A model generated the notes under the pieces. It ran no database searches, was not told where the DNA came from, and saw only the letters and a list, made by a program, of their open reading frames with translations. From the NCBI RefSeq assembly GCF_015223195.1, contig NZ_JADFUA010000001.1, positions 575,858 to 639,857 on the forward strand: a DNA stretch of 64,000 nt. The letters are read 5' to 3'. The DNA is from Chitinilyticum piscinae. Its GTDB lineage: Bacteria; Pseudomonadota; Gammaproteobacteria; Burkholderiales; Chitinibacteraceae. Below are positions 1 through 21,569 of the stretch, piece by piece. Both the position numbers and the translations under genes were made by a program. The first letter of the stretch is position 1, and each line of letters starts with the position of its first letter.

Positions 1-384
1 TACGAAGCCATGCCTGCATTTGTGCCCGGGCTGTCAAGCAGTCGCATTCTCCAGCGCGAAGGCCCGGTGCTGAAAATCAGCCAGCACGGGCGTTACCGCT
101 TCGGGCCGTTTACCGTTTCTGGCGACAGTGTGGCGCGGATCGAATTGCGCGGGCGTGAAGAAATCCTTTGCCAGTCGCTGTCGGGATCGCAAGGGGAATT
201 TTCCAGTATCACGGTGTTGCAGCCGCTTAATGGCAGTACCCAGATCCGTTTTCGTGCCCTCTGGCAACCTGGTAATGCCCTGGTCGCCACGCTGGGAACT
301 GGCACGGTACGCGAGCATGTACGCGAGCAGCTTGCCAGTCTGCAGCAGGAAATGTTGCGCCGCGCCGCATTGGCCGGTAAATAA
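1..384 (+). CDS. hypothetical protein, 5'-partial (C-terminal fragment)
   Basis: ORF 10..384 sits in frame 1 with no upstream stop before the window edge, so the gene probably continues upstream. No recognisable motif. Confidence 0.3.
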   Translation, partial: YEAMPAFVPGLSSSRILQREGPVLKISQHGRYRFGPFTVSGDSVARIELRGREEILCQSLSGSQGEFSSITVLQPLNGSTQIRFRALWQPGNALVATLGTGTVREHVREQLASLQQEMLRRAALAGK

Positions 385-459: not shown

Positions 460-987
460 ATGGCTGCATGCCTGAAATTGCGTCCGCTGGAGCGCGAAGA
501 CCTACGCTTTGTCCATGAACTCGACAATAACGAATCGGTGATGCATTACTGGTTCGAGGAGCCCTACGAGGCATTCGTCGAACTGTGCGATCTCTATGAC
601 AAGCACATCCATGATCAGAGCGAGCGCCGCTTCATCGTCGAGGATGCATCCGGTGAGCGTGTAGGCCTGGTCGAGCTGGTTGAGATCAACCATATCCACC
701 GCCGCGCCGAATTCCAGATCATCATCGCACCAGCGCACCAGGGGCGCGGCTATGCGTCCGCCGCGACACGGCTGGCACAGCACTATGCCTTCACGACGCT
801 GAACCTCTACAAGCTGTCGCTCATTGTCGATTGTGCCAATGCGCCGGCCATTCACGTCTACAGCAAGCTGGGTTTTCGCGAAGAGGGCATTTTGCGACAC
901 GAATTCTTCGTGAACGGCGAATATCGTGACGTGATCCGCATGGCAATTTTCCAGCCTGACTATCTGGCCGGATTGCCCGGGCGCTGA
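460..987 (+). CDS. speG: spermidine N1-acetyltransferase (GNAT family)
   Basis: 175 aa. Nearly collinear with E. coli SpeG: [37 protein letters not shown]...[12 protein letters not shown]...[19 protein letters not shown]...LNLYKL.LIVD..N..AIH.Y.KLGF. Both the length and the motifs match. Confidence 0.85.
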
Positions 988-1634: not shown

Positions 1635-2057
1635 ATGATGGCTGAATACGATGATCTCGAGCGATTTGTGGTGGCGCAGGAGGCTTACTATGCCACGGCC
1701 CTGGCCGAATTGCGGGCAGGGAAAAAGCGCAGCCACTGGATGTGGTTTGTCTTCCCGCAACTGGCCGGGTTGGGGCGTAGCGAAACGGCGCGCTTTTATG
1801 CGCTTTCGGGGCGGGAGGAGGCGCAGGCCTTTCTGGCGCATCCCCTGCTTGGTACGCGCTTGCTGGAATGTACTGCCGCAGTGCTGGCGCTGCCCGCGCC
1901 GGATCTGCTGCAGCTGTTCGGCAGGCCGGACGACCTGAAATTCGTCTCTTCGATGACGCTGTTTGCAGCGCTCAGCCCGCCCGGCTCGGTGTTTGGGCAG
2001 GCTCTGCAGCATTGCCGAGCCTGCCCCGATGCGCGCACGCTGGCGCTGCTGGCTTAG
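1635..2057 (+). CDS. DUF1810 family protein
   Basis: 140 aa containing the HWMWFVFPQ...GLGRS motif typical of DUF1810 proteins. Confidence 0.65.
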
Positions 2058-3673
2058 GCGCGGAACTGGCTGATCAGCGCCTGCAGGCGGTCAGTCTGGC
2101 CGCGCAGCTGCTGGCTGAGTTGTTTGGCATTGGCTGCCGCTGCCGCATTGCTTTCCGAGGCCGCCGAGATACGGTCTACCTGCTCGGTGACCATCTGATT
2201 GGCCTGTGATTGCTCGTGCAGTGCCGAGGCAATGCTTTCGATCATGGCCATGGATTGTTGTGCCGACTGTTCGATGCCTTCAACAGCCTGACCACCATCG
2301 CGGGTAAGAGTAACCCCTTGCCCGACGCGGCTGACGGCTGTCTGCATGTGGTTCATCGACGCATCGGACTCCTGCTGAATCTGGCCAATCATGCCAGCGA
2401 TTTCTGCCGTAGCCCGTGTCGTGCGTTCGGCCAGCTTGCGCACCTCGTCGGCCACTACGGCAAAGCCGCGCCCCTGTTCGCCGGCACGTGCCGCTTCAAT
2501 CGCGGCATTCAATGCCAGCAGATTGGTCTGGTCTGCCACATCCTTGATGGTCTGCATGATGCTGGAAATGCTGGCGGTTTTGTTCACCAGGCTGTTGATG
2601 ACGGTAGATGTATCTGCAACCGAGACGTTGATTTCTTCCATTTCCAGAACGGCTTTGCCCAGCAGGGTCCGCCCTGCCCGTGATTGCTCGGCAGACTGGC
2701 GTGAGTGCACATTGGCCGATTCGGCACTTGCGGCTATCTGATGCACGCTTTCGGTCAGCTCGGTGATGGCGGCAGCCATGGCCGCAGCGGCCTCATGCTG
2801 GCGGAAGGAGCCGGATTCAACCTGTTCGGCATCGCTGGCCAGCTGCTGGCTCATGCGGTTGACCCCGCCGGATACGGATCCCAGTTCGCTGACCAGTGTG
2901 CGCAATGAGGACTGCATCCGCGCCAGATCGTGCATCAGACTGCCATCGTAGTGGCGCGCAACCGGAATGGGGTTTTGCAGGTCACCATTGGCAATCGCGC
3001 GCATGGCGCCAGCGGCGGTCGCGGGTTCCCCGCCCAGCTGCCGGTAAAGCGAGCGGGTAATCTGCAGCGCGATGGCCAGCAGGATGGCGGTGATGACCGC
3101 GATCAGGAGCAATTCCTGCAGCAGGGTTTGCCAGAACTGGGCCTGAATGTCCTCGACATAGACCCCGGTACCAATAATCCAGCCCCAGGCGGCGAAGCCC
3201 TGGACATATGACAGCTTGGGCTGGGGTTTGTCGCTGCCCGGCTTGGGCCATTGATAGCTCACGAAGCCCTTGCTCTGCTGCGTGACGGTGGCAACCATCT
3301 CCATGAACAGCAGTTTGCCATCCGGATCCTTGATGCTGCTGAGGTCCTTGCCATCCAGTTCCGGTTTTGCCGCGTGCATCACCATGCGCGGCTGCATGTC
3401 GTTGATCCAGAAATATTCGCTGCCGTTGTAGCGTAGGGCCTTGATGGCGGCCTTGACCTCGGCCTGTGCCGCTTCGCGGCTCAATTGCCCGGCCAGTTCG
3501 CGGGCATGGGCCTGAGCAGCCAGCTGGACCGCGATTTCAACCAGATTGCGCAGCTTGTCCTCGCGGTCCGTCTGCATCTGGCTGCGCAGCATCAGACTGC
3601 CAACGAGGGCGACGATGCTCACGCCGATGAGCGCCAGGGCAATCAACCCGAGCAAACGATTGCGTACCGACAT
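2054..3673 (-). CDS. methyl-accepting chemotaxis protein (single-Cache sensor)
   Basis: 539 aa with an N-terminal TM helix and a periplasmic Cache-like region ([25 protein letters not shown]). A second TM helix and a HAMP domain follow. The MCP signalling domain carries the highly conserved [33 protein letters not shown] stretch. Confidence 0.9.
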
Positions 3674-4962: not shown

Positions 4963-5622
4963 TTAGTAGCCCCCACCGCCTCCGCTGCTATTGAGGCCAT
5001 TGGCAAAAGGCGGTCTGCGGTATTGCAGCGCTTCCAGCATGGTCAGTTCGGCATCGGTGTGGTTGATGACTTCACTGGCCGCTTTGATCTGCTTGCCCTC
5101 CACCCAGTAAGGATGCTCGTGGTGCTTGGTCTGGTACGTCATTCTGGCAGCTGGATCCGCTGTCGGCGTCAGCTCCACGCTGCCATAGCACAGACAGACA
5201 TAACTGCGAGCGCCATGGCTTTCGACATACAGACCGGTTCCGCGGATGCCCAGCGTCACGGCCTGGGTGCGGATGGTCTTTTCGCCGGGGCCGAAGACTG
5301 CCAGCATTTTTCCGCTCTGCACCTTCACCACGTGCTCTGCTGCCGCGAGGCCCAGGGTGACTTCGGTATTGGCGCGCAGCAGGTAGGCGTCGCCATCGAC
5401 GGTAAAGACCGCTTCGCTATTGCTGCCGGTGACAACTTCATCGCCCCAGCTGACGGGTTGGCCGACCACGGCTGGTTTGCCGTTGATCAGCACCTGTCCC
5501 TTGATGCTTTTCAAGCCCGGCTTGGGCAGGAAAAAGGCGCCGGCAATCGCTCGGCCACCCAGGAGCAGGGTGCTTCCGGCAAGCCATTGCAGGATCTGGC
5601 GGCGGGTGTATGGCTTAGACAT
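4963..5622 (-). CDS. FecR-domain protein with Tat-type signal peptide
   Basis: 219 aa. Twin-arginine leader TRRQILQWLAGSTLLLGG. FecR-like beta region VVTGSNSEAVFTVDGDAYLLRANTEVTL. Glycine-rich C-terminus. Its start lies 2 nt after the stop of the upstream CHASE2 cyclase gene. Confidence 0.65.
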   Translation of the reverse strand: MSKPYTRRQILQWLAGSTLLLGGRAIAGAFFLPKPGLKSIKGQVLINGKPAVVGQPVSWGDEVVTGSNSEAVFTVDGDAYLLRANTEVTLGLAAAEHVVKVQSGKMLAVFGPGEKTIRTQAVTLGIRGTGLYVESHGARSYVCLCYGSVELTPTADPAARMTYQTKHHEHPYWVEGKQIKAASEVINHTDAELTMLEALQYRRPPFANGLNSSGGGGGY

Positions 5623-5624
5623 GA

Positions 5625-7763
5625 TCAGCTCCGGTGGGGGCGGGTAGCCAGCTGCTCACGGTAGATGTGGTAGAGCTGGCGTTGTGGTGCCTGCCGGGCG
5701 AGGTCGTCCAGCAGGGCATGGGCACGTTCGGTGTCGTTTTGCTGCAGAGCCTGCTGCAGCTCATCCCAGCGTAGCACTTCGCCGGCAGACAGCCAGGGCG
5801 CACGCTCGTCCAGCGGCAGGGTCAGCGCGACAGTCTGCTGGCGGCCCTTGACTGTCGTGGTGGCGATGGGCAAGCAAGGTATGTTGCTGGTGACACGAGA
5901 AGCTACCTCGCCGCTGACCAGCAAGGGCACGTCATAAACCCGGGTCAGTTTTTCCAGCCGGGCTGCGACATTCACCGCGTCACCCATAACTGTGTAGGCG
6001 CGGCGGAATTCCGAGCCCATATTCCCTACCCGTACCTTGCCGCAGTGCACGCCGATCCCCAGATTCAGGACCGGCCAGCCGCGGCTGGCAAAGTCGGCAT
6101 TCAGCTGGGTAACGCGTCGCTGCATGGCCAGCGCGGCGTCCACGGCGTGCCGGCAATGCTCGGTGTCGGCCAGCGGCGCCCCCCAGAAGGCCATGACGGC
6201 ATCGCCGATGTACTTGTCGATGGTGCCCTGGCGTTGATGAATTTCTTCGGTCATTGCACTCAGATAGCCGTTGACCAGCTCGGCCAGTGCCTCCGGCGGC
6301 AAGGCTTCGGCCACGGCGGTGAAATCGCGCAGATCGGCAAACAGGATGGTCAGTTCGCGGGTTTCCGGCTGCATGGCGAAGTGCTGTGCGTCATCCTGCA
6401 TGCGCCGCACCAGCTCCGGCGGCACATACTCCCCGAACAGGCGCAGCAGCTGGCGGCGCTGACGTGCTTCCCAGAGCCTTGCGGCCAGCACGAAGCCGAA
6501 ATAGGGCAGCAGCATCGCCGCCAGCGGCTCGACCAGTGGCAGCAGCAGACGCTGGTTCTGCCACGCCCAGCCGACGATCCCCAGCAGACTGCTCACGCCC
6601 AGCAGCAGCCACAGGTGGCTTTCCAGCAATCCGGCGCGCGGCAAGCGCCACAGTAGCAGTCCGCCCGCCAGTACGATCCAGCCCACGGCAAACAGCGCAC
6701 CCCATTGGGGCGCTTGCGGCAGGGTGCCGGTACGCAAGCCCAGTACGGTCGCCGCCTGTGCTTCGACTCCGGGAAACAGCGGGCTCACCGGCGTGGCGCG
6801 GATGTCCTGCAGCCCGGTTGCGGTGGCCCCCACGATGATGATTTTACCCTTCAGGGTATTGGTCGGCAGGCTCCTGTTAATGATGGCTGCCGCCGAATAC
6901 GTAGGGATGGTTCCCGGTGGGCCATAGAAAGGGATACGGACTCGCCCGTGCCGGTCGGTGTGCACCAGCCGGCCATCCAGCAGTACACCATCGGGCCAGG
7001 GCTGGCCGCTCTGCCAGTCGGGAATGACCGGCTGCTGGCTGGCCAGCCGCGCCGAGAGCGCGGCATACAGGCTGTGGCGGTAGGCAATCAGCAGCGGGAT
7101 GCGCCGCACGATGCCATCGTCGTCGATTTCGGGGTTGAGGTAACCGGTGTGCGGCAAAGCACCAGCCAGTCCGGCATGCGTGGCGCCATAGCCGCCGGCA
7201 GTGACAAAGGGCGCCAGCCTTGCCGCATCACCTTGCCAGTCCGGCGCAGGTAGCACCCCCTGCTGCTGCGGATCCGGTGTGAAGTAGTAGCCGGCGACCA
7301 GTTGCAGCCTTCCGGCGCGACTGCGGAACAGCGCGTCGGGATCTTTCTCGGCGGCCCAGTCCTTTTCGGCTTCGCTGCACTGGCGTGGACCCAGCCGTTC
7401 GCACAGCAGCGGCCACAGGCGGGCCAGCTGGCTTTCCTCGGCCTCGGCCAGCACGATGTCCAGCCCGATGCGCTGCGTGCCGTAATGGGTCTGCAGGGTT
7501 TCCAGCAGCTCGAGCAGGCGGGTGCGCGGCCAGGGCCAGCGGCCCAGGCTGGCCAGGCTGGCGTCGTCGATGGCCACGATGGCCACATCCTGCGCCGGCA
7601 GCTGCCCGGTCGCCGAGGCGCGCTGGCGGGCATCTTCGCTGTAGCGGTCGAGCTGCCCGAGCAAGGGGAGCGACAACCAGCCCAGTGCATGCAGGAGCAG
7701 CAGCGCCAGAACGGCGCCGAGCAGCAGGCGGCTGAGCAGCAGGCGGGGCAGGGGCATGGACAC
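5625..7763 (-). CDS. CHASE2-sensor class III adenylate/guanylate cyclase
   Basis: 712 aa. N-terminal TM helix followed by a periplasmic CHASE2-like region and a multi-TM segment. The CYTH-cyclase catalytic core is LTILFADLRDFTAVAE...IDKYIGDAVMAFWGAP...GIGVHCGKVRVGNMGS. Confidence 0.85.
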   Translation of the reverse strand: MSMPLPRLLLSRLLLGAVLALLLLHALGWLSLPLLGQLDRYSEDARQRASATGQLPAQDVAIVAIDDASLASLGRWPWPRTRLLELLETLQTHYGTQRIGLDIVLAEAEESQLARLWPLLCERLGPRQCSEAEKDWAAEKDPDALFRSRAGRLQLVAGYYFTPDPQQQGVLPAPDWQGDAARLAPFVTAGGYGATHAGLAGALPHTGYLNPEIDDDGIVRRIPLLIAYRHSLYAALSARLASQQPVIPDWQSGQPWPDGVLLDGRLVHTDRHGRVRIPFYGPPGTIPTYSAAAIINRSLPTNTLKGKIIIVGATATGLQDIRATPVSPLFPGVEAQAATVLGLRTGTLPQAPQWGALFAVGWIVLAGGLLLWRLPRAGLLESHLWLLLGVSSLLGIVGWAWQNQRLLLPLVEPLAAMLLPYFGFVLAARLWEARQRRQLLRLFGEYVPPELVRRMQDDAQHFAMQPETRELTILFADLRDFTAVAEALPPEALAELVNGYLSAMTEEIHQRQGTIDKYIGDAVMAFWGAPLADTEHCRHAVDAALAMQRRVTQLNADFASRGWPVLNLGIGVHCGKVRVGNMGSEFRRAYTVMGDAVNVAARLEKLTRVYDVPLLVSGEVASRVTSNIPCLPIATTTVKGRQQTVALTLPLDERAPWLSAGEVLRWDELQQALQQNDTERAHALLDDLARQAPQRQLYHIYREQLATRPHRS

Positions 7764-7846: not shown

Positions 7847-10800
7847 TCACGGGCGGATGAGTGTCTGAATTGCGTGTTGCAGCTGCTGTTGCCGCATGTC
7901 GAGTTCCTCCTGGGCTGTCTGCAGCAGGTGCAGCTGGCCGGTATGTTTCAGCGCAATCAGGCGCTGGCCGAGCAGGTGCAGCTGCTCGTGCCGCGAGGCG
8001 AGCTCCAAGAAGGCCGGTTTGCTGCCGTGCCGCTGCAGGCCGTCGCCATTCAGCCAATGCCCGAGTTTGCAGTCGTGGCTGGCTGCGGCGGGGGGCAGCG
8101 CCGATTCGCCCCGTAGCCAGCCCTGCAGCTGTGCCATCCAGGCGCGATGGTCAACCGCGGCAAACAGCAGCGGGAGATCATCTCGCCGGACTTCCGCACA
8201 ATGAGCCCATTCCGGCGGTGGTTGCCAGCGAGCCAGCCATTCGGGTATTGCGGCAGCAGGCATCGGGCGCGCGATGGCATACCCCTGCGCCCATTCGCAG
8301 CCCATCTGCAGCAGCAGCTCGCCATGAGCCAGTGTTTCTACCCCTTCGGCAATCGCATTGCGCTGGAACGCGGTAGCCAGCCCCAGCACCCCTTCCAGAA
8401 TGGCGAGGTCTTCCGGATCGTCAAGCATGTCGCGCACGAAGCTCTGGTCGATTTTCAGCACCTGCGCGGGTAGCTGTTTCAGATAAGTCAGCGAGGAATA
8501 GCCGGTACCGAAATCATCCAGTGCGAAGCCCACCCCCAGATCGCGACAGGCCAGCATGATGTCCGAGAGCTGGCGGATATCCTCCAGTGCACTGGTTTCC
8601 AGTACTTCCAGCTCCAGATCGCCGCTCTGGAGGGCTGGATGTGCGGCCAGCGTCGCGCGCAGTTTGTCCAGAAAAGTGGATTGTCCGAACTGGATGGCGT
8701 CGATATTGACGCTGACCGGCACGTGCAGGCCCAGGCTGCGCCACTGGCTGATCTGCGCCAGCGCGGTATCCAGTACCCATTCGCCCAGCTGGATGCCGAG
8801 GGCATGATTATCGATCGCCGGGAGAAATTCAGCCGGTGGCAGCAGGCCTTTTTGCGGATGCTGCCAGCGCAGCAAGGCTTCTGCCCCCAGCACCTGCCCG
8901 GTGCGCATATTCACCTTGGGCTGGTAGTGCAGCACGAACTCATTGCCGGCCAGTCCCTGCCGGATGCGTTCCTGGGTTTCGTGATGCCCGCGCACCATCC
9001 GATCCTGTTCGGCATCGAAAAGGTGATAGCGGTTCTTGCCGGCCTGCTTGGCCACATACATTGCCTGATCTGCCTGGCGCAGCAGCTGGTCGGCATCAAC
9101 CTTGTCCGCTTGCGGGAAAAACGTCACCCCGGCACTGGCTGAGACATGCAGCAGCTTGCCATCGACATGCACCGGCTCGGCAGCAGCGGCCAGCAGCCGT
9201 TTCAGAATCGGTGTACTGCTCTCCTGATCGTGCAGATCCTGCAGCACGGCCACGAATTCATCGCCACCCAGCCGCGCCAGGGTATCTTCATCACGCAGGG
9301 CATCCTTCATCCGGGCGGCCAGTCTGGCCAGCAGGCGATCCCCCGTCTTGTGGCCAGAACTGTCGTTGATTTCCTTGAAGCCATCCAGATCCAGATACAC
9401 CACGGCCAGGCTGGCTGCATGCCGCTGGGCATGGGCCATCGCCTGGTGCAGCCGGTCGCCCAGCAGTACCCGGTTGGGCAGATCGGTGAGGATGTCGAAA
9501 TGGGCAATCCGTTCCAGCTGGGATTGGTGCTGCTTCAGTTCGGTAATGTCGATGGCGACCCCCAGGACATGGGTGGCATCGGCAACCTGATAGGGGATTT
9601 TGCTCGTCTGCAGATCCCGGCGACAGCCGGTGTGATCGATGAAGGTATCGTCAGGAATGCAGATGGCCTTGCCGGACTGGATGACTTCCTGATCGGCCGC
9701 CTGTATGCCGGCAACCAGCTCCGCATCCCGGTTGAAGTCCGCATCGCGGTGGCCCAGCAGTTGTTCCGGTGTGGTGCCATAGGCGCTGGCGAGAGCCTGG
9801 TTGGCCAGTGTGTACTGGCCCTGATTATTCCGCGCAAAAATGAAATGCGGTACCAGGTCAATGATGGTGCGCAGATGGCGCTCGCGCTCGCTGATTTCTG
9901 CTTCGGCGTGCTGGCGCTGCCTGATTTCGTGACTGAGTGCCGCGTTGCTTTCGCTGAGCTGCCGGGTGCGTTCGGCCACCCGCTGTTCCAGCGAGGCCTG
10001 CAGCTCGCCCAGACTATCCGCCATCTGATTGAAGGAGCGCGCCAGTTCCCCGATTTCATCCTGATTGTGCACGGCGGCCCGTTCATCGAGGTGGCCGGCC
10101 GTAATGGCCTGGGTGGTGCCCAGCAGGTGGCGCACCGGCTCAAGGATACCCCGGCCAAGCTGACGGGCCAGCAGCATCGCCGCAATGATCGTCAGCACAA
10201 AGCAGCTGCCGGCCAGAATCAGAGCCAGCAGGATGCTGTGCCGGATTTGCGCACGGGTATCGTTTTCCAGTTGCTGCGCGGCCGACTGAATCTGCTCCGA
10301 CAGGCTTTGCAGTGTCTGTTCGGTCTGGCGATTGCGGCTCTGGTATTGCAGTGCGCTGGCGAAACTGTTCAGGTAACTGCCGGCATCGCGCAGGATGCGA
10401 TAGATCTGCCGCTGCTGCTCGGATTGTCTGATCTGCACCCTGCTTTCCCCTTGCAGACGGGCCAGCTCGAGTGTCAGCCGCTCGATCTGTGCGGTGGCCG
10501 CCGTGGGGGGCTGGTTGCGGATTGCCTGGGTCTGCCAGAGCAGGCTGCTCACTTGGTCTGAGAGCGTATCGACCGCTGAATGAGTATGAGGGTGTGATTC
10601 GGAAAGCCGGATGGCGACGATGTCGTTCATCACCCGCGCGCTCAGGGCGCTGGCCTGGCTTTCCAGTGCGGCCTTCTGGTCCAGCTCGATAACGAACTTC
10701 TGGAAGGTGGCGCGGTACTCGTCCAGCACCGGGGGCAGTTTGCCAAGCAGGCGGGTGCGATCCTGCAGTCCGCTGATTGCACCCCTGACCTGATCGAGCT

Positions 10801-11038
10801 GGTGAAAGGTTTCCGCGGCATCTTCTCGGGCACGGGTTTGCACGAAATGCGTGACTCCGTCGTGCATGCGGTCAAGCTTGCTGGTCAGTTGCTCCGAATC
10901 GTTCTGCAGATCCAGCTGGCGGGTGATGGCCAGCCCGGTCACTACCCCGACCAGTGCGTTCAGTGCCAGCAATGCAATCAGCACGCCAAAGCTCAGGCTG
11001 ATTTTCTGCTGGAAACGGAGTCGGGACAGCAGTTTCAT
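7847..11038 (-). CDS. membrane sensor with HAMP-PAS-GGDEF-EAL domains and a C-terminal CZB (chemoreceptor zinc-binding) domain
   Basis: 1063 aa. TM helix, ~270-aa helical periplasmic sensor, second TM and HAMP (QAITAGHLDERAAVHNQDEIGELARSFNQM), then a PAS domain. GGDEF domain with RLGGDEFVAVL. EAL domain with EALLRWQHPQKGLLPP...QPKVN. C-terminal ~100 aa HRAWMAQLQGW...CKLGHW...HEQLH fit the CZB H-x3-W / C-x-L-G-x-W / H-x3-H pattern. Confidence 0.9.
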   Translation of the reverse strand: MKLLSRLRFQQKISLSFGVLIALLALNALVGVVTGLAITRQLDLQNDSEQLTSKLDRMHDGVTHFVQTRAREDAAETFHQLDQVRGAISGLQDRTRLLGKLPPVLDEYRATFQKFVIELDQKAALESQASALSARVMNDIVAIRLSESHPHTHSAVDTLSDQVSSLLWQTQAIRNQPPTAATAQIERLTLELARLQGESRVQIRQSEQQRQIYRILRDAGSYLNSFASALQYQSRNRQTEQTLQSLSEQIQSAAQQLENDTRAQIRHSILLALILAGSCFVLTIIAAMLLARQLGRGILEPVRHLLGTTQAITAGHLDERAAVHNQDEIGELARSFNQMADSLGELQASLEQRVAERTRQLSESNAALSHEIRQRQHAEAEISERERHLRTIIDLVPHFIFARNNQGQYTLANQALASAYGTTPEQLLGHRDADFNRDAELVAGIQAADQEVIQSGKAICIPDDTFIDHTGCRRDLQTSKIPYQVADATHVLGVAIDITELKQHQSQLERIAHFDILTDLPNRVLLGDRLHQAMAHAQRHAASLAVVYLDLDGFKEINDSSGHKTGDRLLARLAARMKDALRDEDTLARLGGDEFVAVLQDLHDQESSTPILKRLLAAAAEPVHVDGKLLHVSASAGVTFFPQADKVDADQLLRQADQAMYVAKQAGKNRYHLFDAEQDRMVRGHHETQERIRQGLAGNEFVLHYQPKVNMRTGQVLGAEALLRWQHPQKGLLPPAEFLPAIDNHALGIQLGEWVLDTALAQISQWRSLGLHVPVSVNIDAIQFGQSTFLDKLRATLAAHPALQSGDLELEVLETSALEDIRQLSDIMLACRDLGVGFALDDFGTGYSSLTYLKQLPAQVLKIDQSFVRDMLDDPEDLAILEGVLGLATAFQRNAIAEGVETLAHGELLLQMGCEWAQGYAIARPMPAAAIPEWLARWQPPPEWAHCAEVRRDDLPLLFAAVDHRAWMAQLQGWLRGESALPPAAASHDCKLGHWLNGDGLQRHGSKPAFLELASRHEQLHLLGQRLIALKHTGQLHLLQTAQEELDMRQQQLQHAIQTLIRP

Positions 11039-12348
11039 GGCGCGGGTTTCACGGCCCTAGTGGCGGAAAACCGGGCGGCCGCTTCATCGGCCAGCCGCCG
11101 GGTGATTTCCGGATAGGCATCAGGAAAAGCGAGAAATTCGGCAAAGGCATCCAGCCCGAGCTCGGCGACTGGTGGGGGGGTGGCAAGGTCAAAGGCAAAA
11201 TCGAAGACCGGACTGCGCTCGAGTTCTTTGCGTACCCGGCGCTGGATATCGCTGTAGGCGGAATCAGGAACCTGCAGATTCGGTGCCAGTGCGCCGGAGT
11301 AACGGCTGAAGGTGCGCTGGGCCTCGGCGCTGGCCAGATAGCGCAGCGCAGTACCGGCACCGGCCTTGTCGTGTGCCCGTTTCGGCATCACGATCCCGTC
11401 AATGGGGCCGAGTGCCACCGTCGGAATGGCCGGGTCAATTTGCGGGAAGGGAAAGAAGTCGAAATCCTTGCCGGCCTGCCACTGGTGCGTGTTGTTGCTG
11501 AAATAGGCCAGATTCCAGGTGCCCATCAGGGTCATGGCGGCTTCACCACGGAAGACCATGTCGTTGGCACCGCTGTCCCAGGCCAGCTCATTGGGATGCG
11601 GTCTGCTGTTGAAATACCCCTTGTCGATCAGGCTTTTCCAGCGCGCAAACACGGCCCTGACCTGCGGGTCGTCAAAGCGGGCCTCACCGGACATCAGCTG
11701 CTGCCGGAACGAGTAGGGCGCGGTGCGCAGCAGCAGATAATCGAACCAGAACTGTGCCGGCCACTTGTCGCGGGCACCCAGTGCAATCGGCGTGATGCCC
11801 CGCGCCTTGAGCGCGGCACATACCGCCAGAAACTCCTCCCAGGTCTTGGGGGGCTGCAGCTGCAGCTGATCGAACAGTTTTTTGTTGTAGAAGAACGCAA
11901 TGTAGTGCTGGGTTAGCGGCAGGAAGTATTTCTTGCCCCGGTATTCGCTGGCTGCCTTGATCACGGAGGGGGCGAATGCCTTGTCCCAGCCGGCTTGCTG
12001 CCACAGCTCGTCCAGCGGCTCCAGCTCATCAACAATCGAAGCCGTGCGTGCACCGGCCCAGTAGGAATACAACTCGGGCGGATTGTCGGTTTTCAGCGTG
12101 TCCTGGATGCTGGTCTTGAATGCTTCGTGGTCGAGGGAAATTGCTTTCAGCTCCAGTGCCGGATGCTGGTTATTGAAGCCCTGCGACATTTCATCGATGC
12201 CGCCACTGAGCGAATCGGTGAAGTAATGCAGAAACGTGATCGAGGATCGTGGCGGCGGTACTGCCGTGTCATCGTTGCGGGAGCAGGCCGCCAGTGCCAG
12301 CAGGATGGCGCTCAGCAGTGCGGCGAGCAGCAGGGTTCCGGCACGCAT
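11035..12348 (-). CDS. periplasmic solute-binding protein (ABC-type, family 1) with lipoprotein signal; orphan, coupled to the sensor gene
   Basis: The ORF runs to 12441, but the signal peptide MRAGTLLLAALLSAILLALAACS begins at ~12348. The ~430-aa mature protein has the family-1 SBP fold (FLAVCAALKARGITPIALGARDKWPAQFWFDYLL). Its stop overlaps the downstream sensor start as ATGA (11035-11038). Confidence 0.8.
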   Translation of the reverse strand: MRAGTLLLAALLSAILLALAACSRNDDTAVPPPRSSITFLHYFTDSLSGGIDEMSQGFNNQHPALELKAISLDHEAFKTSIQDTLKTDNPPELYSYWAGARTASIVDELEPLDELWQQAGWDKAFAPSVIKAASEYRGKKYFLPLTQHYIAFFYNKKLFDQLQLQPPKTWEEFLAVCAALKARGITPIALGARDKWPAQFWFDYLLLRTAPYSFRQQLMSGEARFDDPQVRAVFARWKSLIDKGYFNSRPHPNELAWDSGANDMVFRGEAAMTLMGTWNLAYFSNNTHQWQAGKDFDFFPFPQIDPAIPTVALGPIDGIVMPKRAHDKAGAGTALRYLASAEAQRTFSRYSGALAPNLQVPDSAYSDIQRRVRKELERSPVFDFAFDLATPPPVAELGLDAFAEFLAFPDAYPEITRRLADEAAARFSATRAVKPAP

Positions 12349-12543
12349 CTCGGGATCCATGGTGTGTGGATGAGCCTGAAGTATAGGATGCCCTGCAGGG
12401 AGCGCAGGCGGAGGGAGGAACCCCGTCGCCGTCGCAGGCATGCAGGCCTTAACGTGCCCCTTTCCGGAAAATGGCTCGCGGGGCTGGTCAAATGCGGGTC
12501 AAGCGCGCAAGCTAGCGGGCGTCATGCCCCTGACAGCACCATC

Positions 12544-13524
12544 ATGAATGCCCCCGACCCCCTGCGTTACCAAAAGCGTCTGCAGCGTGTACTGCAGCAC
12601 ATCGAAGCGCGGCTGACCGAGCCGCTGGAGCTGGCCGACCTGGCCGGGGTTGCCAATTTTTCTCCGTTTCATTTCCAGCGCATTTTTTCGGCACTGATCG
12701 GCGAAACACCGCAGGATTACATCCGCCGCCTGCGGCTGGAGCGGGCGGCCAACCAGTTGCTGGTGCACAAACGGCGCAGCGTGCTGGATATTGCGCTCTC
12801 GAACGGTTTTGAAACGCAGCATGGTTTTGCCAAGGCCTTCCGCAAGCATTTCGGCATGAACGCGACCCAGTGGCGCAGCGATCGCAGTTTCTGGCAGTGG
12901 AACGGCTATCGCTGGGAATGGCGCAAGGATCGCAATCCCGGACCCATACCGGGCAATTTCCGACACCTGTACCAGACCGACGCCGCGTACTCTGAGGACC
13001 GGATTGCCGCACTGAATGCTGCGCATCGGGGTGAGCGTCCGGAATGCATCCGGGGGGTGCGGATCGACATCTTGCCGGCCTATCACGCAGCAGTCTTCCG
13101 GCGGCTGGGTCATCAGCTGGAGCAGCCCCTGGCGCACTGGCGCGAGGTGCTGGCGTGGGCCGAGCTGCAAGGCGTGCCGCTGGAAGGCGGCACCGGGCTG
13201 TGCGTGTGTCACGACAACATCAATATCACGCCGGAGCGCATGCTGCGGCTGGATACCGGATTGGTGGTGCCGGCAGACTATGCGCCCGACGGCGTGACAA
13301 CACTGATCGACACCCTGCCTGGCCGCTATCTGGTGGTGCAGTTCGAAGGCGCGATTCATGAGGAAGTCGTGGCCAATGCCTGGCTGTGGGGGCACTGGTT
13401 CAACGACAACCCCTACGAGCCCGACGACCGGCCGACCATCTATCGCGCACCGTATCAGCCGCTGGATGTGTCGCCTGATGCCCGATACCGCTTCGACATC
13501 TGCATTCCGGTACGCCTGATCTGA
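12544..13524 (+). CDS. AraC-family transcriptional regulator with GyrI-like effector-binding domain
   Basis: Real start at MNAPDPLRY (~12544) inside the longer ORF 11995..13524. HTH_AraC signature LADLAGVANFSPFHFQRIFSALIGETPQDYIRRLRLERAANQL. C-terminal ~160 aa form a GyrI/Rob-like domain. Confidence 0.8.
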   Translation: MNAPDPLRYQKRLQRVLQHIEARLTEPLELADLAGVANFSPFHFQRIFSALIGETPQDYIRRLRLERAANQLLVHKRRSVLDIALSNGFETQHGFAKAFRKHFGMNATQWRSDRSFWQWNGYRWEWRKDRNPGPIPGNFRHLYQTDAAYSEDRIAALNAAHRGERPECIRGVRIDILPAYHAAVFRRLGHQLEQPLAHWREVLAWAELQGVPLEGGTGLCVCHDNINITPERMLRLDTGLVVPADYAPDGVTTLIDTLPGRYLVVQFEGAIHEEVVANAWLWGHWFNDNPYEPDDRPTIYRAPYQPLDVSPDARYRFDICIPVRLI

Positions 13525-16898: not shown

Positions 16899-17082
16899 TC
16901 CCTGCCTGAAGCCGTCACCTGCCCGCTGCCGCTGAGCCGCGCGGCCGGTGCCGAGCTGCGGAGCAAGCCGTGACCATCCGGTTGCGGCGTGCATTTCTCG
17001 CCCGTTTTTCCGCCGCTGGCGGAGAACAGGGGCGCAGCCGGCAGGCTTGGTCCCGCCTGCTCGCCCCGCTGGAGATCAGAAC

Positions 17083-18240
17083 ATGACAAGAAAAATACCG
17101 TTATACGGTGGCATGGCTGCGGCCATGTTGCTGCTGGCCGGCCTGGCGCCGGCTGCCGCCCCGCCTTCAGAGCCGGTTCCCGCGCTCTGGCTGGGGCAGG
17201 CGCCGCTGCGCGCCACCGAGCTGGCATCGATGCCGCTGGATGCCGATCGCGTGGCGCGGATTGCCATCCTGAATGCCCCCGCGCTGCGGCCGGCGCTGCG
17301 CGAACATGGCATCAGCCCGGCACAGCTGGCCGTTTTACCGCTGTGGCAGCAGACAGCCGCGGTCGACATTGGCCGTGATGTACTGGGGCTGGCGCAGGCC
17401 CCGCAGGGACGCACGGCGCTGGCGCAAGCCGTGCTGGATAGCGTGCGCGAGGCGCGGCTGGCCTGGTTACAGCTGGCGCTGGCCAGCCAGACGCTGCAAG
17501 TGTGCGAACAGCAGGCGCGCGCGGCCGATGCCGCGCTGACCCTGATGGAGGCGCAGGTACAGGCCGGCAACGCGGCCGAGGAAAAGCGCCTGCCGCTCAG
17601 ACAGGCGGCACGCGCCGCCGCTCGCGAACGTCTGCACTGTGCCGCCGCGCTGGCCAAGGCGCAGCGTCGGCTGGCCAGTGTGCTCGATTTGCCGGATGCC
17701 ACGACTCTGCGCACCGCCCCCTTGCCCGCACTGCCGGCCAGCCTGCCGCAGGCCGAGCTGCCGCAATGGCTGGCAGCCAGCCCGACAGGCCGGCAACTGC
17801 AGCAGCAGCAGGCCATCGAGGCGGCGGCACTGCTGCCGCGTGCGGCCAGCCGCAGCCTCCGTCTGCCGCTGACTGGCGCACTGGATCCCGAAGGCATGCC
17901 GGCCGTGTCGGCCGCCCAACTGGAGCTGGGCCTGCAGCAAGCCGGGCTGCGTGCGCAGCTGGCGGACGACTGGGCGGCGCTTGAGCTGACCTTTCAGGAG
18001 TATCGCTCGCTAAGCGAGCAGTTACCTGATGCCCAGAGCTATACCCGGGTAATGCTCACCCATTACAACGGCATGCTCGGCAGTGTGTACGAGCTGATCG
18101 ACGCCCGCGCCGCCGAATTCGCCCTGCAGCGCGAGTTGCTGGAAAAACAGGCCGCCTTCTGGGAACACGCCTTCACGCTGGAAGCGCGCCTGGGCGCGCC
18201 GGTCATCATCAACAAGGAGGTGCGTCATGCAGCGCCGTGA
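17083..18240 (+). CDS. TolC-like outer-membrane efflux protein (short, ~385 aa)
   Basis: Start at MTRKIPLYGGMAAAMLLLAGLAPAAA (signal peptide) within ORF 16948..18240. Ala/Leu/Gln-rich helical coiled-coil composition typical of OEP/TolC family proteins. Shorter than the usual 450-500 aa. Its stop overlaps the multicopper oxidase start by 14 nt. Confidence 0.6.
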   Translation: MTRKIPLYGGMAAAMLLLAGLAPAAAPPSEPVPALWLGQAPLRATELASMPLDADRVARIAILNAPALRPALREHGISPAQLAVLPLWQQTAAVDIGRDVLGLAQAPQGRTALAQAVLDSVREARLAWLQLALASQTLQVCEQQARAADAALTLMEAQVQAGNAAEEKRLPLRQAARAAARERLHCAAALAKAQRRLASVLDLPDATTLRTAPLPALPASLPQAELPQWLAASPTGRQLQQQQAIEAAALLPRAASRSLRLPLTGALDPEGMPAVSAAQLELGLQQAGLRAQLADDWAALELTFQEYRSLSEQLPDAQSYTRVMLTHYNGMLGSVYELIDARAAEFALQRELLEKQAAFWEHAFTLEARLGAPVIINKEVRHAAP

Positions 18241-19528
18241 TTTTCTGGGAGCCAGTGCGGGTGCGCTGGCCGGGCTGGGCTTGCTGGGTATTGGTCGTGA
18301 GGCCAGCGCTGCGGCTGCCAGTGTGGCAAACCCCCTTGGTGTATCTGGCGGTCGCACCCCGGTGACGACGCTGAACACCCGCACGCTGGGTTTTCGCATG
18401 AACAATGGCGTGAAGGAATACCACCTGATCGCCGAACCCGTCGAACAGGAAGTCGCCCCCGGCATGACGGCGCTGTTCTGGGGCTATAACGGCAGCAGCC
18501 CGGGCCCGACCATCGAGGCCGTCGAGGGCGACCGCGTGCGCATTTTCGTCACCAACAAGCTGCCCGAGCACACCACCATCCACTGGCACGGCATTCTGCT
18601 GCCGGCCGGTATGGATGGTGTGGGCGGGCTGACGCAGCCGCAGATCAAGCCGGGCGAAACCTATGTCTACGAGTTCACCCTCGGCAAATCCGGCACTTTC
18701 ATGTACCACCCGCATGCCGACGAAATGGTGCAGATGGCGCAGGGCATGATGGGCATGTTCATCGTGCATCCGAAAAACCCTGCCGAGCGCCGTGTCGACC
18801 GCGATTACGCCTTCATGCTGGCCAGCTACAAGATCGATCCCGGCACGCGCCGGCCCGATCCTTCGGAAATGCTCGATTTCAACCTGTGGACCTTCAACAG
18901 CCGTACCTTCCCGGCGATTGCCCCGCTGGTGGCGCGCACCGGTGAACGGGTGCGCATCCGCGTGGCCAACCTGACGATGACCAATCATCCGGTGCATGTG
19001 CATGGGGTGGATTTCCGCGTCACCGGCACCGACGGCGGCTGGGTTCCGGAGGCCGGGCAATGGCCGGAAGTGACGACCGACGTCGCCGTCGGGCAGATCC
19101 GCGTGATCGAGTTTGTCGCCAAGGCGCCGGGCGACTGGGCGCTGCACTGCCACAAATCGCACCACACCATGGGGCCGATGGGGCATGGCGTGCCGAATAT
19201 GCTGGGGGTCGACCAGGCCGCCGCCACCGCGAAAATCGAAGCATTGCTGCCCGGCCAGCACTATATGGAAATGGGCAGCAACGGCATGGCCGAAATGCAG
19301 GACATGGCGGCCATGGCGGCGATGATGCCGCTGCCGCCCAACACCCTGCCGATGATGACCGGTGAAGGGCCGTTCGGGCCGATTGAAATGGGCGGCATGT
19401 TCACGCTGCTGAAGGTGCGCGACGCGCAGAAGCCGGGTGATTACAGCGACCCGGGCTGGTACGAACACCCGCCGGGTACCGTCGCCAGGCCAGCAGACAG
19501 CAAGGCCTTCAGTGGCATACCCACCTGA
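18227..19528 (+). CDS. multicopper oxidase (CopA/PcoA/CueO type), Tat-exported
   Basis: 433 aa. Tat leader MQRRDFLGASAGALAGLGLLG. Type-1/2/3 copper-ligand motifs HWHG, HPHADE, HCHKSHH. Met-rich insert MEMGSNGMAEMQDMAAMAAMMPLPPNTLPMMTG typical of copper-resistance MCOs. Confidence 0.9.
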   Translation: MQRRDFLGASAGALAGLGLLGIGREASAAAASVANPLGVSGGRTPVTTLNTRTLGFRMNNGVKEYHLIAEPVEQEVAPGMTALFWGYNGSSPGPTIEAVEGDRVRIFVTNKLPEHTTIHWHGILLPAGMDGVGGLTQPQIKPGETYVYEFTLGKSGTFMYHPHADEMVQMAQGMMGMFIVHPKNPAERRVDRDYAFMLASYKIDPGTRRPDPSEMLDFNLWTFNSRTFPAIAPLVARTGERVRIRVANLTMTNHPVHVHGVDFRVTGTDGGWVPEAGQWPEVTTDVAVGQIRVIEFVAKAPGDWALHCHKSHHTMGPMGHGVPNMLGVDQAAATAKIEALLPGQHYMEMGSNGMAEMQDMAAMAAMMPLPPNTLPMMTGEGPFGPIEMGGMFTLLKVRDAQKPGDYSDPGWYEHPPGTVARPADSKAFSGIPT

Positions 19529-19575
19529 TACGCCAGCAGTTCCACAAGTTCACAACGCATTGAAAGGATTCACCC

Positions 19576-20070
19576 ATGAAAACCACCCTGATCATCACCT
19601 CCTTCCTGCTGGCACTGGCTGCGCCCGCGAGCTTTGCCGCCGGTAGCGGCGAGCACGACCACGGCAGCATGCACGGCGAGGGCTACAGCTTTGGCGAACC
19701 GGGCAAGGCTACTGAAGTGACCCGCACCATCAAGGTCAGCGCCGGCGATGACATGAAATTCGTCTTCGACCCGCCGATCGGCAGCATCAAGCGCGGCGAA
19801 ACCATCCGCTTCGACATCACCAATACCGGCAAAACCGTGCACGAATTCTCGGTGGGCGATGCCGCCAGCCAGCGCGCGCATGCCCTGATGATGAAAAAGA
19901 TGCCCGACATGAAGCACGATGCCGATCCGAGTGCGGTGACGCTGGAGCCGGGCCAGAGTGGCAGCGTGATCTGGAAATTCAACAAGACCCCGCAGGGCGA
20001 CATCGTGTTTGCCTGCCAGAAGCCCGGCCACTACGACGCCGGCATGCAATTCAAGACCAGACTGAAATAA
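19576..20070 (+). CDS. copI: periplasmic cupredoxin-like copper-binding protein (CopI-like)
   Basis: 164 aa. Signal peptide followed by a His-rich N-terminus GEHDHGSMHGEG. Cupredoxin fold with type-1 Cu ligands (H..C..H..M: VHEF...FACQKPGHYDAGM). Confidence 0.75.
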   Translation: MKTTLIITSFLLALAAPASFAAGSGEHDHGSMHGEGYSFGEPGKATEVTRTIKVSAGDDMKFVFDPPIGSIKRGETIRFDITNTGKTVHEFSVGDAASQRAHALMMKKMPDMKHDADPSAVTLEPGQSGSVIWKFNKTPQGDIVFACQKPGHYDAGMQFKTRLK

Positions 20071-20603: not shown

Positions 20604-21569
20604 TTAAGCGTCGATCTGCCGGTCAAACAGCCAGTTACCGGCCAGATCGATGTAGCCATTGCGCCCGTCACGGCTGGCTTCCAGCACGTCCGGATAGAGG
20701 TCTAACTCGATGTTATCAAAGGTGCAGGGGATGACCAGTTCGCCGCTGCGGTCGATGCAGCCTTGCCTGCCTGTGGCATCGTAGACCACCGCCAGCCCGC
20801 AGGGCATGAAGCTGCTGGCGTCCGCAAAGCGGGCGGCAATCACCAGTTCGCCCGTGCGGTTGATGAAGCCGTAGCGGCCGTCGATCTCGACGCGTGCCAG
20901 CCCCTGCCGCAGGTCGGCCAGATCATCGTATTGCGGAGTAACAACCTCCGCGCCCTGGCTGTCGATCAGCCCGTAGCGCCCGTCCTGCACCACCAGCGCC
21001 AGCCCTTCCGGACCAAAGTGGAAAACGCTGTCGAAGTCCGGCGTCAGCACGGTGTCGCCATTGCGGTTGATGAACAGTACCCGTTCATCCTCGTCGCGCG
21101 CGCGCGCCAGCCCGTTGGCCGCGAAATCACTCAGCTTCTCGTAGCGCGGCGGAATCCGCCAGGCGCCGCTGGTGTCGATATAGCCCAGCTGACCTTTATC
21201 CACCCTGGCCATGCCGTGCTCGTCAAAATCGTAGGCATTGTCGAACTGTGCGGGGATGACCAGCTCGCCGCTGCGGTCGCAGTAGCCGCTGAGGTAACTG
21301 CCATCCGTGACCGCTGCCAGCCCGCAGGCGGCAAAGTCGCGGGCACTATAGAAGCGCGGCGAGATCTGCCACTGGCCGTCCATTCCCAGATACCCCAGCG
21401 AGTCGTCGCGGTGGGGAACGATGATGGCGGCTGCCAGCCCGAAGCAGAACCGGCCGATGTCGTAATAGCGCGGCGCAATCAGGATGCTGCCGTCACGGTC
21501 GGCATAGCCCTGCTGGCCGCCGGCGTTTTCGATGGGCAGCCAGTGATAAGGATCGGTGATGATGGGCAT
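20604..21569 (-). CDS. WG-repeat (KWG) containing protein
   Basis: 321 aa of repeated ~35-aa units with an aromatic-G-(Y/F)I(D/N) pattern (GYADRDGSILIAPRY, GYLGMDGQWQISPRF, GYCDRSGELVIPAQF, GYIDTSGAWRIPPRY, and so on). Confidence 0.7.
   Translation of the reverse strand: MPIITDPYHWLPIENAGGQQGYADRDGSILIAPRYYDIGRFCFGLAAAIIVPHRDDSLGYLGMDGQWQISPRFYSARDFAACGLAAVTDGSYLSGYCDRSGELVIPAQFDNAYDFDEHGMARVDKGQLGYIDTSGAWRIPPRYEKLSDFAANGLARARDEDERVLFINRNGDTVLTPDFDSVFHFGPEGLALVVQDGRYGLIDSQGAEVVTPQYDDLADLRQGLARVEIDGRYGFINRTGELVIAARFADASSFMPCGLAVVYDATGRQGCIDRSGELVIPCTFDNIELDLYPDVLEASRDGRNGYIDLAGNWLFDRQIDA

Follow-up and report, generated by a model that had tools for sequence, protein, structure and literature searches.

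The locus examined here places a gene for a solute-binding lipoprotein (SBP) immediately ahead of a gene for a membrane-bound c-di-GMP enzyme. This arrangement raises the question of whether the lipoprotein serves transport or reports a small molecule to the enzyme. A preliminary description of this DNA favoured the second possibility and recorded the SBP gene as an orphan without permease or ATPase genes nearby. Inspection of the window (i.e. the whole 64-kb stretch of DNA that was analysed) extended this observation, as neither ABC ATPase motifs nor CUT1 permease homologues were detected anywhere within it. Given this lack of a transporter and the conservation of the pair across phyla described below, the two genes very probably represent an uncharacterised system in which a binding protein reports to a sensor.

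Organization of the gene pair

The features of the pair are collected in Table 1. An ATGA overlap between the SBP and sensor genes, recorded in the preliminary description, was seen again on re-reading of the sequence and is predicted to couple the translation of the two genes. The region shared with the divergent regulator gene is presumed to contain the promoter of the SBP-sensor operon; a promoter scan of this region found no sigma-70 consensus, so the placement of the promoter is by inference. The sole hairpin obtained from the scan was a weak 5-bp structure between the sensor gene and a CHASE2 gene. The genes surrounding the pair in the window are unrelated to it.

Table 1. Coordinates of the SBP-sensor gene pair and its parts within the window
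Feature	Position	Strand	Basis
SBP gene, 437-aa family-1 (CUT1, sugar-type) lipoprotein	11035..12348 (including stop codon)	-	Pfam, NCBI identity, AF2
Signal peptide and lipobox, MRAGTLLLAALLSAILLALAAC, with Cys22 as predicted lipidated residue	12283..12348	-	sequence reading
ATGA overlap of SBP stop (TGA) with sensor ATG	11035..11038	-	read as ccATGAaa
Sensor gene, 1063 aa: TM, HBM-like domain, TM, HAMP, PAS, GGDEF, EAL, CZB	7847..11038	-	
TM helix 1, about aa 15-38	10925..10996	-	hydropathy peak; AF2 continuous helix 9-68
Periplasmic sensor domain, about aa 39-266, predicted divergent helical-bimodular (HBM/TorS-like), six-helix	10241..10924	-	
TM helix 2, about aa 267-291	10166..10240	-	hydropathy peak; AF2 helix 207-313
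HAMP, aa 294-343	10010..10159	-	Pfam PF00672, 1.3e-14
PAS, aa 388-502	9533..9877	-	Pfam PAS_4 7.2e-10, PAS 0.0019
GGDEF, aa 512-670	9029..9505	-	Pfam 5.3e-47; motif search
EAL, aa 690-925	8264..8971	-	Pfam 3.5e-68; motif search
CZB (chemoreceptor zinc-binding), C-terminal, aa 964-1028	7955..8149	-	Pfam PF13682, 42.7 bits vs 29.4
Intergenic region, 219 nt, common to the SBP gene and a divergent AraC/GyrI-like regulator gene	12349..12567	.	gene positions

The binding lipoprotein is of the sugar type

The open reading frame of the SBP extends over 11035..12441 on the minus strand, and a start at the ATG at 12348 produces a 437-aa protein that is 100% identical over its full length to an NCBI entry, 'extracellular solute-binding protein [Chitinilyticum litopenaei]' (i.e. 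P0001). Pfam matches were obtained to SBP_bac_1 (7.4e-32) and SBP_bac_8 (6e-29), and Cys22 was invariant in an alignment of 24 sequences. The AF2 model (pLDDT 91.6) exhibits the family-1 fold of CUT1 transporter SBPs, with Foldseek TM scores of 0.75-0.81 to AcbH. By both sequence and fold, the closest solved structures are AcbH (galactose) and a Thermus glucose/galactose-binding protein, and the top PDB matches are all sugar binders (i.e. AcbH and SBPs for glucose/galactose, chitobiose and xylobiose); no polyamine binder was present among the listed PDB matches by either measure. The structural matches to AcbH and the glucose/galactose-binding protein bear out an earlier assignment of this SBP as sugar-type and not PotD-like.

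As the host is chitinolytic and the NgcE equivalog (TIGR03851) was the best NCBIfam match, a role in sensing chitin oligosaccharides was considered. This candidate was rejected because the NgcE match (75.9 bits) fell short of its 399.65 cutoff and monosaccharide binders supplied the top folds. The UgpB equivalog was likewise rejected (34 bits against a cutoff of 411), as was the MalE equivalog, whose NCBIfam cutoff the SBP also failed to reach.

The sensor combines a predicted helical periplasmic domain with c-di-GMP and CZB domains

The periplasmic domain of the sensor, previously put at ~270 aa, was revised to about 230 aa from the positions of the two flanking hydrophobic segments (Table 1). 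An AF2 model of this domain, generated from a shallow 7-sequence alignment, exhibited an all-helical HBM/TorS-like fold (pLDDT 84.7) with the two stacked four-helix bundles of the TorS type. Alignment of the periplasmic part with HBM using hhalign gave 94.8% (E 5.5e-8). The Pfam HBM model (PF16591) matched 10 of 36 members of the sensor family weakly, the best at 3e-5, and the window sensor had no match to it at E <= 1. When the query was a profile that included the HAMP domain, HBM chemoreceptors were recovered with E values of 1e-21 to 2e-30; the results obtained with the family alignment were dominated by HAMP proteins, two family members being retrieved along with the HBM chemoreceptors. 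No matches came from a word-indexed homology search in which the periplasmic domain was the sole query, and no relationship between the sensor and TorS was detected at sequence level. On the strength of the structural model and the hhalign comparison, the periplasmic sensor domain is predicted to have an HBM/TorS-type fold, and we propose that it is the docking site for the SBP.

The cytoplasmic portion had been described as HAMP-PAS-GGDEF-EAL; Pfam found all four of these domains, together with a C-terminal CZB domain that had been overlooked. In the GGDEF domain, the GGDEF signature is intact and an I-site of the RxxD type is present (RDED at 582), and the EAL domain contains the complete set of EALxR, SVN, EVLE, DDFGTGYSS, KID, EGVE and QGY motifs; a comparison of the sensor with the GGDEF-EAL structure 5m3c gave 341 bits. 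These motifs are presumed to be catalytic after PleD and RocR, and both domains are predicted from them to be catalytically competent. The CZB domain scored above the Pfam gathering threshold, and its predicted zinc ligands (His964, Cys990, His1017 and His1021) are conserved in two orthologues (L006 and L008). Three His and one Cys constitute the known CZB zinc-ligand set (PMC8846402). A phmmer search of PDB sequences with the CZB region returned no matches.

The pair is conserved across phyla with exchangeable outputs

The preliminary description had made its proposal depend on the two genes being neighbours in other genomes. This was examined for the 80 loci containing the best SBP relatives, with one locus per species. 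In 48 of these the order was kept, with the SBP gene followed by a gene for a HAMP sensor that has two TMs and a periplasmic loop of 200-280 aa. Among loci with an SBP identity of at least 52%, the SBP -> sensor order was present in 27 of 28, the remaining locus ending before the next gene. In 41 of the 48 loci the gap between the two genes did not exceed 15 nt, and six had the identical 4-nt overlap. Within these best 80 relatives, the 48 species with the pair cover Proteobacteria, Desulfobacterota, Spirochaetes and Firmicutes. As the same gene order recurs in so many loci of different species, the pairing is far beyond chance.

Only the SBP (45) and sensor (41) genes were recurrent in the 48 loci. 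The next commonest neighbour cluster was found in eight; the example listed for it lies antisense to the SBP gene and overlaps it. The two permease genes that accompany a CUT1 SBP were absent from the window and were not recurrent in the sensor-type loci, one of which (L014) contained CUT1-permease homologues that were distant (28-31% identity) and upstream. Neither the CHASE2-cyclase gene nor the FecR gene downstream of the pair was recurrent in related loci, and co-function of the pair with them was rejected. A connection to polyamines through speG, raised earlier, was also dropped: the gene itself is real (463..987; NCBIfam 306.7 bits vs cutoff 218), but its link to the pair is unsupported, speG not being recurrent near the pair in other genomes.

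The periplasmic domains of the sensors in L001-L027 are homologous to that of the window sensor (phmmer 1e-12 to 1e-34). The sensor outputs vary, comprising GGDEF-EAL-CZB, PAS-GGDEF-EAL, GGDEF alone, hybrid HisKA-HATPase-REC and a YesM-like kinase. Comparison of distance matrices gave r = 0.91 for the SBP and periplasmic domain (Mantel p 0.001) and r = 0.79 for the SBP and HAMP domain, both values being confounded by shared phylogeny. Mean identity was 52% for the SBP across phyla as compared to 19% for the periplasmic domain. The conserved unit is SBP, HBM-like domain and HAMP, with c-di-GMP as one of several outputs.

Transporter-linked relatives hint at the ligand

SBP relatives of 46-52% identity are transporter SBPs whose genes are followed by two BPD_transp_1 permease genes, and permeases were located beside the SBP in 14 more distant loci. 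The transporter-linked cassette is itself conserved and consists of LacI, the SBP, two permeases, a TPP enzyme and a Gfo/Idh/MocA dehydrogenase. The TPP enzyme is IolD-like (IolD 149 bits vs NCBIfam cutoff 715), and the dehydrogenase scored 114 bits with IolG (cutoff 355). The transporter-linked relatives hold nearly all of the conserved residues of the SBP: 71 residues are at least 90% conserved and identical between the sensor- and transporter-linked proteins, 23 of these being aromatic or His. With the TPP enzyme and the dehydrogenase encoded beside these relatives, a monosaccharide or cyclitol becomes a tentative candidate for the SBP ligand, a hint drawn from relatives of 46-52% identity and from enzymes scoring far below their NCBIfam cutoffs. 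A literature search for a pathway combining TPP and Gfo/Idh/MocA enzymes gave no usable match.

Alternative explanations for the adjacency of the two genes

The SBP could, like GltB, ChvE or MalE, be a transport protein for a CUT1 ABC transporter whose genes lie in another part of the genome; the position of the SBP gene beside the sensor gene would then reflect co-regulation or a moonlighting role of the SBP as co-sensor. Such an arrangement would be in keeping with the bona fide transporter SBPs found among its 46-52% identity relatives, and dual-function SBPs are well documented (PMC8050422). Inspection covered 64 kb, and a CUT1 permease and ATPase set without its own SBP could exist outside this region. 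We nevertheless regard a transport or dual role as unlikely: the window has no permease, the stop codon of the SBP gene overlaps the start of the sensor gene, and permeases do not recur across the 48 loci with a sensor, the single case being distant and upstream. Moreover, exchange of the outputs has left the SBP together with the HBM-like domain, which would be expected of a pair in which the sensor is the partner of the SBP.

Alternatively, the HBM-like domain could bind the signal itself, leaving the SBP as an accessory without an input role. McpS binds malate and acetate directly, and a sensor with an HBM domain capable of binding small acids in this manner might not need an SBP. The strict co-occurrence of SBP and domain across phyla is, however, not readily accounted for unless the two are functionally linked, and the domain is poorly conserved whereas the SBP is highly conserved, a difference that fits a specific ligand pocket in the SBP. 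Direct sensing is accordingly considered very unlikely. A chance or merely operonic neighbourhood without functional coupling is hardly credible given the retention of gene order in 48 of 80 loci over four phyla, the very short gaps and the status of SBP and sensor as the sole recurrent genes in those loci.

Proposed mechanism

The SBP and sensor probably constitute a two-gene, binding-protein-dependent sensory cassette in which a ligand acts through the SBP on a c-di-GMP enzyme. The original suggestion that an orphan SBP reports a small molecule to such an enzyme has thus gained support from the conserved adjacency of the genes and the rarity of permeases. In the mechanism we envisage, the periplasmic lipoprotein would capture a carbohydrate that is small and neutral, with a monosaccharide or cyclitol as the most likely candidate. 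The SBP, in either its liganded or unliganded state, would dock on the helical-bimodular domain of a sensor dimer, like TorT on TorS. Such docking is supported indirectly by the conserved pairing of the genes and by the correlated divergence of the SBP and the periplasmic domain. The signal would then pass via TM2 and HAMP to the PAS-GGDEF-EAL portion and shift the balance between c-di-GMP synthesis and hydrolysis. The C-terminal CZB may provide a second, cytoplasmic input (i.e. zinc or oxidants), as in DgcZ.

A broader reading is offered tentatively and is judged less likely than not. The SBP might be a cross-phylum receptor for one specific small carbohydrate or cyclitol, which in Spirochaetes and Firmicutes would be catabolised by an uncharacterised Gfo/Idh/MocA dehydrogenase and an IolD-like TPP enzyme. 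Its nearly unchanged pocket may have passed from a transport to a signalling role via HBM-type docking, producing a portable SBP, HBM and HAMP input module that evolution has connected to kinases as well as to c-di-GMP enzymes. In the present sensor, the CZB might sense zinc or oxidants on the cytoplasmic side, to be combined with a periplasmic sugar signal.

The occurrence of the same input module on different outputs would offer a ready model for the study of SBP signal transfer through HBM and HAMP. The high conservation of the SBP relative to its partner domain is experimentally useful, and the tie to a conserved catabolic cassette provides a concrete route to the ligand.

Comparison with known systems

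The TorT-TorS system senses TMAO, and a structure of the complex is available (3O1H). TorT belongs to Peripla_BP_1 (class I) and the SBP examined here to the SBP_bac_1/SBP_bac_8 type (class II), and TorS feeds a phosphorelay while the window sensor would have a c-di-GMP output. The HBM chemoreceptors McpS and CtpL resemble the sensor in the fold and length of the periplasmic domain between two TMs and in the HAMP that follows, but have an MCP signalling domain in place of the c-di-GMP enzyme or kinase outputs of this family. Inputs from SBPs to HBM or HBM-like domains are represented by TorS with TorT and CtpL with PstS, the latter for phosphate (PMC8050422).

In CuaD-CuaS-CuaR of Ruminiclostridium cellulolyticum, a signalling-dedicated family-1 sugar SBP is encoded beside a sensor while a paralogous SBP serves an ABC transporter (PMC10384115), which parallels the sensor- and transporter-linked SBP clades described here. 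The extracellular domain of CuaS, in contrast, was modelled as a Cache-like alpha/beta sandwich rod and not as an HBM (PMC10384115). The Cua system also differs in being Gram-positive and in having a kinase and response regulator as output.

The CZB of DgcZ, the zinc-/hypochlorite-regulated diguanylate cyclase of E. coli, is N-terminal and is its only known sensor. The CZB of the window sensor is instead C-terminal, after the EAL domain, in a membrane protein with periplasmic and PAS inputs. The two enzymes have in common a CZB with a 3-His/1-Cys site on a c-di-GMP enzyme (PMC8846402).

NspS-MbaA of Vibrio cholerae, to which the pair was initially likened, transmits a polyamine signal through an SBP without a transport role to a c-di-GMP enzyme (PMC8050422; PMC8079147). 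Both loci have an SBP gene adjoining and co-directional with a membrane GGDEF-EAL gene, no transporter genes and a periplasmic domain between two TM helices. NspS is, however, a PotD-like polyamine binder as compared to the CUT1 sugar-type SBP found here, and the periplasmic domain of MbaA is entered as 'not annotated, dCache-like' (PMC8050422), unlike the predicted all-helical HBM-like domain of the window sensor, which also has PAS and CZB domains. The likeness therefore stands for the logic of ligand, SBP and c-di-GMP enzyme but is not familial, the folds being HBM/TorS-like and dCache-like, respectively. A 2021 review contains no more than two binding-protein-dependent c-di-GMP enzymes, i.e. 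NspS-MbaA and ScrB-ScrC (PMC8050422). Neither uses a family-1 sugar-type SBP or an HBM-type sensor domain, and the present cassette would add a third type of c-di-GMP enzyme fed by a binding protein.

Conservation of the SBP-sensor cassette

More than 1600 relatives of the SBP (i.e. the family-1 solute-binding lipoprotein) were found, the best 120 having 50-71% identity and deriving from several phyla. Related loci (80, one genome per species) were scanned for the gene following the SBP gene. Adjacency to the sensor (i.e. the membrane c-di-GMP protein), on which the preliminary description had staked its reading, was conserved, with a two-TM protein having a 200-280-aa loop in 48 of the 80 loci, including 27 of the 28 with an SBP identity of at least 52%, the remaining locus being truncated. 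Other loci had a sensor with a shorter loop (6), an ABC-permease-like gene (11) or another gene (12) at this position, or were lost at a contig end (3). The SBP-sensor gap was at most 15 nt in 41 of the 48 loci, with the identical 4-nt overlap in six, and partners in loci L001-L027 matched the window periplasmic domain at 1e-12 to 1e-34 (phmmer). Only the sensor (45) and SBP (41) formed recurrent clusters among ORFs flanking the 48 loci; the third-ranked cluster occurred in 8/48, its listed example being antisense to the SBP gene and overlapping it. Conservation is thus confined to the two genes, which form a self-contained cassette.

Outputs of the sensors differed between genomes. Precomputed Pfam assignments for loci of matching layout gave HAMP-HisKA-HATPase-REC in Trichlorobacter lovleyi, HAMP-GGDEF in Thiospirillum jenense and HAMP-PAS-GGDEF-EAL in Rhodoferax, and transporter genes were absent nearby in all three loci inspected. 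Among ten partners, one common N-terminal module preceded hybrid kinases, PAS-GGDEF-EAL proteins and a YesM-like kinase (Pfam). An exhaustive phmmer search of 1.84 billion representatives yielded 26 clusters matching the periplasmic domain, the 19 long ones carrying HAMP (19), GGDEF (12), EAL (6), HATPase_c (6), REC (4) and CZB (1; chemoreceptor zinc-binding). Thus the SBP remains with the periplasmic domain and HAMP whilst the output changes, the pattern predicted for an SBP whose partner is the periplasmic domain.

In six Desulfobacterota and related loci (L044, L046, L054, L076, L081 and L085), the gene after the SBP relative encodes a HAMP sensor whose periplasmic loop is much shorter, at ~140 aa (HAMP-PAS-HisKA-HATPase-REC in L054); these may represent the arrangement with a single four-helix bundle. 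Public organism names for contig JABVCQ010000002.1 (L002 / L027) are inconsistent, i.e. Rhodopseudomonas palustris in the protein source vs Thiospirillum jenense DSM 216 in the genome record.

Features of the window and of the sensor protein
Feature	Position	Strand	Remarks
speG	463..987	+	NCBIfam PRK15130, 306.7 bits vs cutoff 218
sCache_2 methyl-accepting chemotaxis protein	2054..3673	-	
CHASE2-cyclase/FecR pair	4963..7763	-	begins 84 nt downstream of sensor gene, past weak hairpin 7815-7800
FecR-domain protein gene	4963..5622	-	219 aa; 2 nt past CHASE2-cyclase gene
CHASE2 + class III adenylate/guanylate cyclase gene	5625..7763	-	712 aa
Sensor gene	7847..11038	-	1063 aa
Two membrane segments	sensor aa about 15-38 and 267-291		hydropathy
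HAMP	sensor aa 294-343		Pfam
PAS	sensor aa 388-502		Pfam
GGDEF	sensor aa 512-670		Pfam
EAL	sensor aa 690-925		Pfam
CZB	sensor aa 964-1028		Pfam, 42.7 bits vs cutoff 29.4
SBP ORF	11035..12441	-	open reading frame
AraC-type HTH + GyrI-like effector-domain regulator	12568..13524	+	Rob/SoxS-like N-terminus
Copper-handling cluster	16948..20070		
Outer-membrane-efflux-like ORF (copper cluster)	16948..18240		weak OEP match
Multicopper oxidase (copper cluster)	18227..19528		
CopI-like cuproprotein (copper cluster)	19576..20070		
Protein of five WG-containing beta-repeats	20604..21569	-	PF14903, 3.2e-67

Gene structure and sensor architecture

Translation of the SBP gene from the ATG at 12348 gives a signal peptide with terminal lipobox, MRAGTLLLAALLSAILLALAAC, and a 437-aa protein with 100% full-length identity to P0001, an NCBI protein annotated as 'extracellular solute-binding protein [Chitinilyticum litopenaei]'. 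The frame is open for 31 further codons 5', up to an ATG at 12441 (12349..12441, -); the 12348 start is preferred because of the canonical lipoprotein signal peptide predicted and the agreement with the NCBI protein. The ATGA overlap noted previously was recovered, the SBP stop TGA and sensor ATG having bases in common (ccATGAaa, 11035-11038).

Certain GGDEF, EAL and CZB motifs are marks of active enzymes, as established for PleD, RocR and DgcZ. The predicted GGDEF and EAL domains of the sensor have all catalytic motifs present, i.e. DILTDLPNR, DLDGFKEIND, I-site RDED and GGDEF in the former and EALLR, SVN, EVLE, DDFGTGYSS, KID, EGVE and QGY in the latter. Pfam returned the whole HAMP-PAS-GGDEF-EAL layout of the preliminary description, which had overlooked the C-terminal CZB. 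Predicted zinc ligands of this domain (His964, Cys990, His1017 and His1021; ligand set as in PMC8846402) were all kept in both CZB-bearing orthologues (L006 and L008).

From the positions of the membrane segments, the periplasmic domain spans ~230 aa rather than the ~270 aa first proposed. This domain had no Pfam match in the window sensor; 10 of 36 family members matched PF16591 (HBM, the helical-bimodular domain) weakly, and a family profile search retrieved HBM chemoreceptors. With hhalign, TM-domain-TM-HAMP aligned to HBM at 99.7% and the periplasmic part alone at 94.8% (E 5.5e-8, 215 columns). An AF2 model of sensor aa 1-350 was all-helical with six periplasmic helices (pLDDT 84.7; shallow alignment of 7 sequences). 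For TorS, an 'HBM-like' sensor, activation comes from the binding protein TorT, and CtpL is an HBM chemoreceptor sensing phosphate via PstS (PMC8050422). The periplasmic domain is probably of this HBM/TorS-type fold, for which docking of an SBP thus has known precedents.

In the proposed mechanism, the sensor dimer would receive the lipoprotein SBP, ligand-loaded or ligand-free, at its HBM-like domain. The docking change would travel via TM2 and HAMP into PAS-GGDEF-EAL and there shift net c-di-GMP turnover, with CZB adding a response to zinc or oxidants like that of DgcZ. Divergence of SBP and periplasmic domain was correlated (r = 0.91, Mantel p 0.001; HAMP 0.79), a relationship confounded by phylogeny and compatible with co-evolution.

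Ligand class of the SBP

Pfam assigned the SBP to SBP_bac_1 (7.4e-32) and SBP_bac_8 (6e-29); no NCBIfam equivalog was reached. Its closest solved proteins by sequence were AcbH (2e-37), xylo-oligosaccharide binders, a Thermus glucose-binding protein and the chitobiose binders NagB1/NagB2. Fold comparison of an SBP model (pLDDT 91.6) ranked AcbH above a Thermus glucose/galactose-binding protein, followed by chitobiose and xylobiose binders and then a Pseudomonas glucose-binding protein. Both rankings agree with the original view of a sugar-type rather than PotD-like SBP.

Transporter-linked SBP relatives (46-52% identity) occurred in 14 loci, mostly of Spirochaetes (L050, L055, L056, L057, L063, L065, L067-L069, L071, L072, L075, L079 and L083). 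These share a single cassette of LacI regulator, SBP, two permeases, TPP enzyme (630 aa) and Gfo/Idh/MocA dehydrogenase (388 aa). Best NCBIfam matches fell far below cutoff for both the TPP enzyme (IolD, 149 bits vs 715) and the dehydrogenase (IolG and levoglucosan dehydrogenase). As the enzymes match no curated NCBIfam equivalog, the cassette may encode a catabolic pathway for a sugar or cyclitol that has yet to be described. In L055 (6813..14125), an acylating aldehyde dehydrogenase comes next, near the SauS cutoff (551.7 vs 600 bits).

Comparison of sensor-linked (n=49) and transporter-linked (n=13) SBPs identified 71 positions (23 aromatic or His) that were at least 90% conserved and the same in both, and one that was conserved but different. 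We infer that both groups may share one small-carbohydrate ligand, perhaps a monosaccharide or cyclitol, a lead that depends on enzymes scoring under family cutoffs.

Genomic neighbourhood

The reported lack of a permease or ATPase near the SBP held across the 64-kb window, as a six-frame search found no Walker-A...LSGGQ ABC ATPase motif and tblastn with permeases of transporter-linked relatives found no permease match. Unrelated genes lie before the pair (in order, speG, sCache chemoreceptor, DinB, FecR-domain protein and CHASE2-cyclase) and past it (a divergent AraC/GyrI-like regulator, SBP_bac_3 protein, GNAT and diacylglycerol-kinase-like ORF). The speG gene mentioned earlier is a genuine spermidine N1-acetyltransferase gene but has no linkage to the pair. 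CHASE2-cyclase and FecR look like a second, independent sensor/accessory-protein pair and are not recurrent beside the SBP cassette in other genomes. The AraC/GyrI-like regulator, separated from the SBP gene by a 219-nt intergenic region, could control the cassette in the host species; it is not conserved beside the cassette in other genomes.

Comparison with known systems

Searches of the available literature found no account of an SBP_bac_1 and HBM-like cassette. The analogy with NspS-MbaA drawn in the preliminary description stands for functional logic but not for membership, as SBP class and sensor-domain fold both differ. TorS has the sensor fold in common with the window sensor but a partner SBP of a different class. 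CuaD-CuaS resembles the window pair in concept, with a family-1 sugar SBP that serves signalling only and has a paralogue in transport, whereas the extracellular domain of CuaS is alpha/beta, unlike that of the window sensor.
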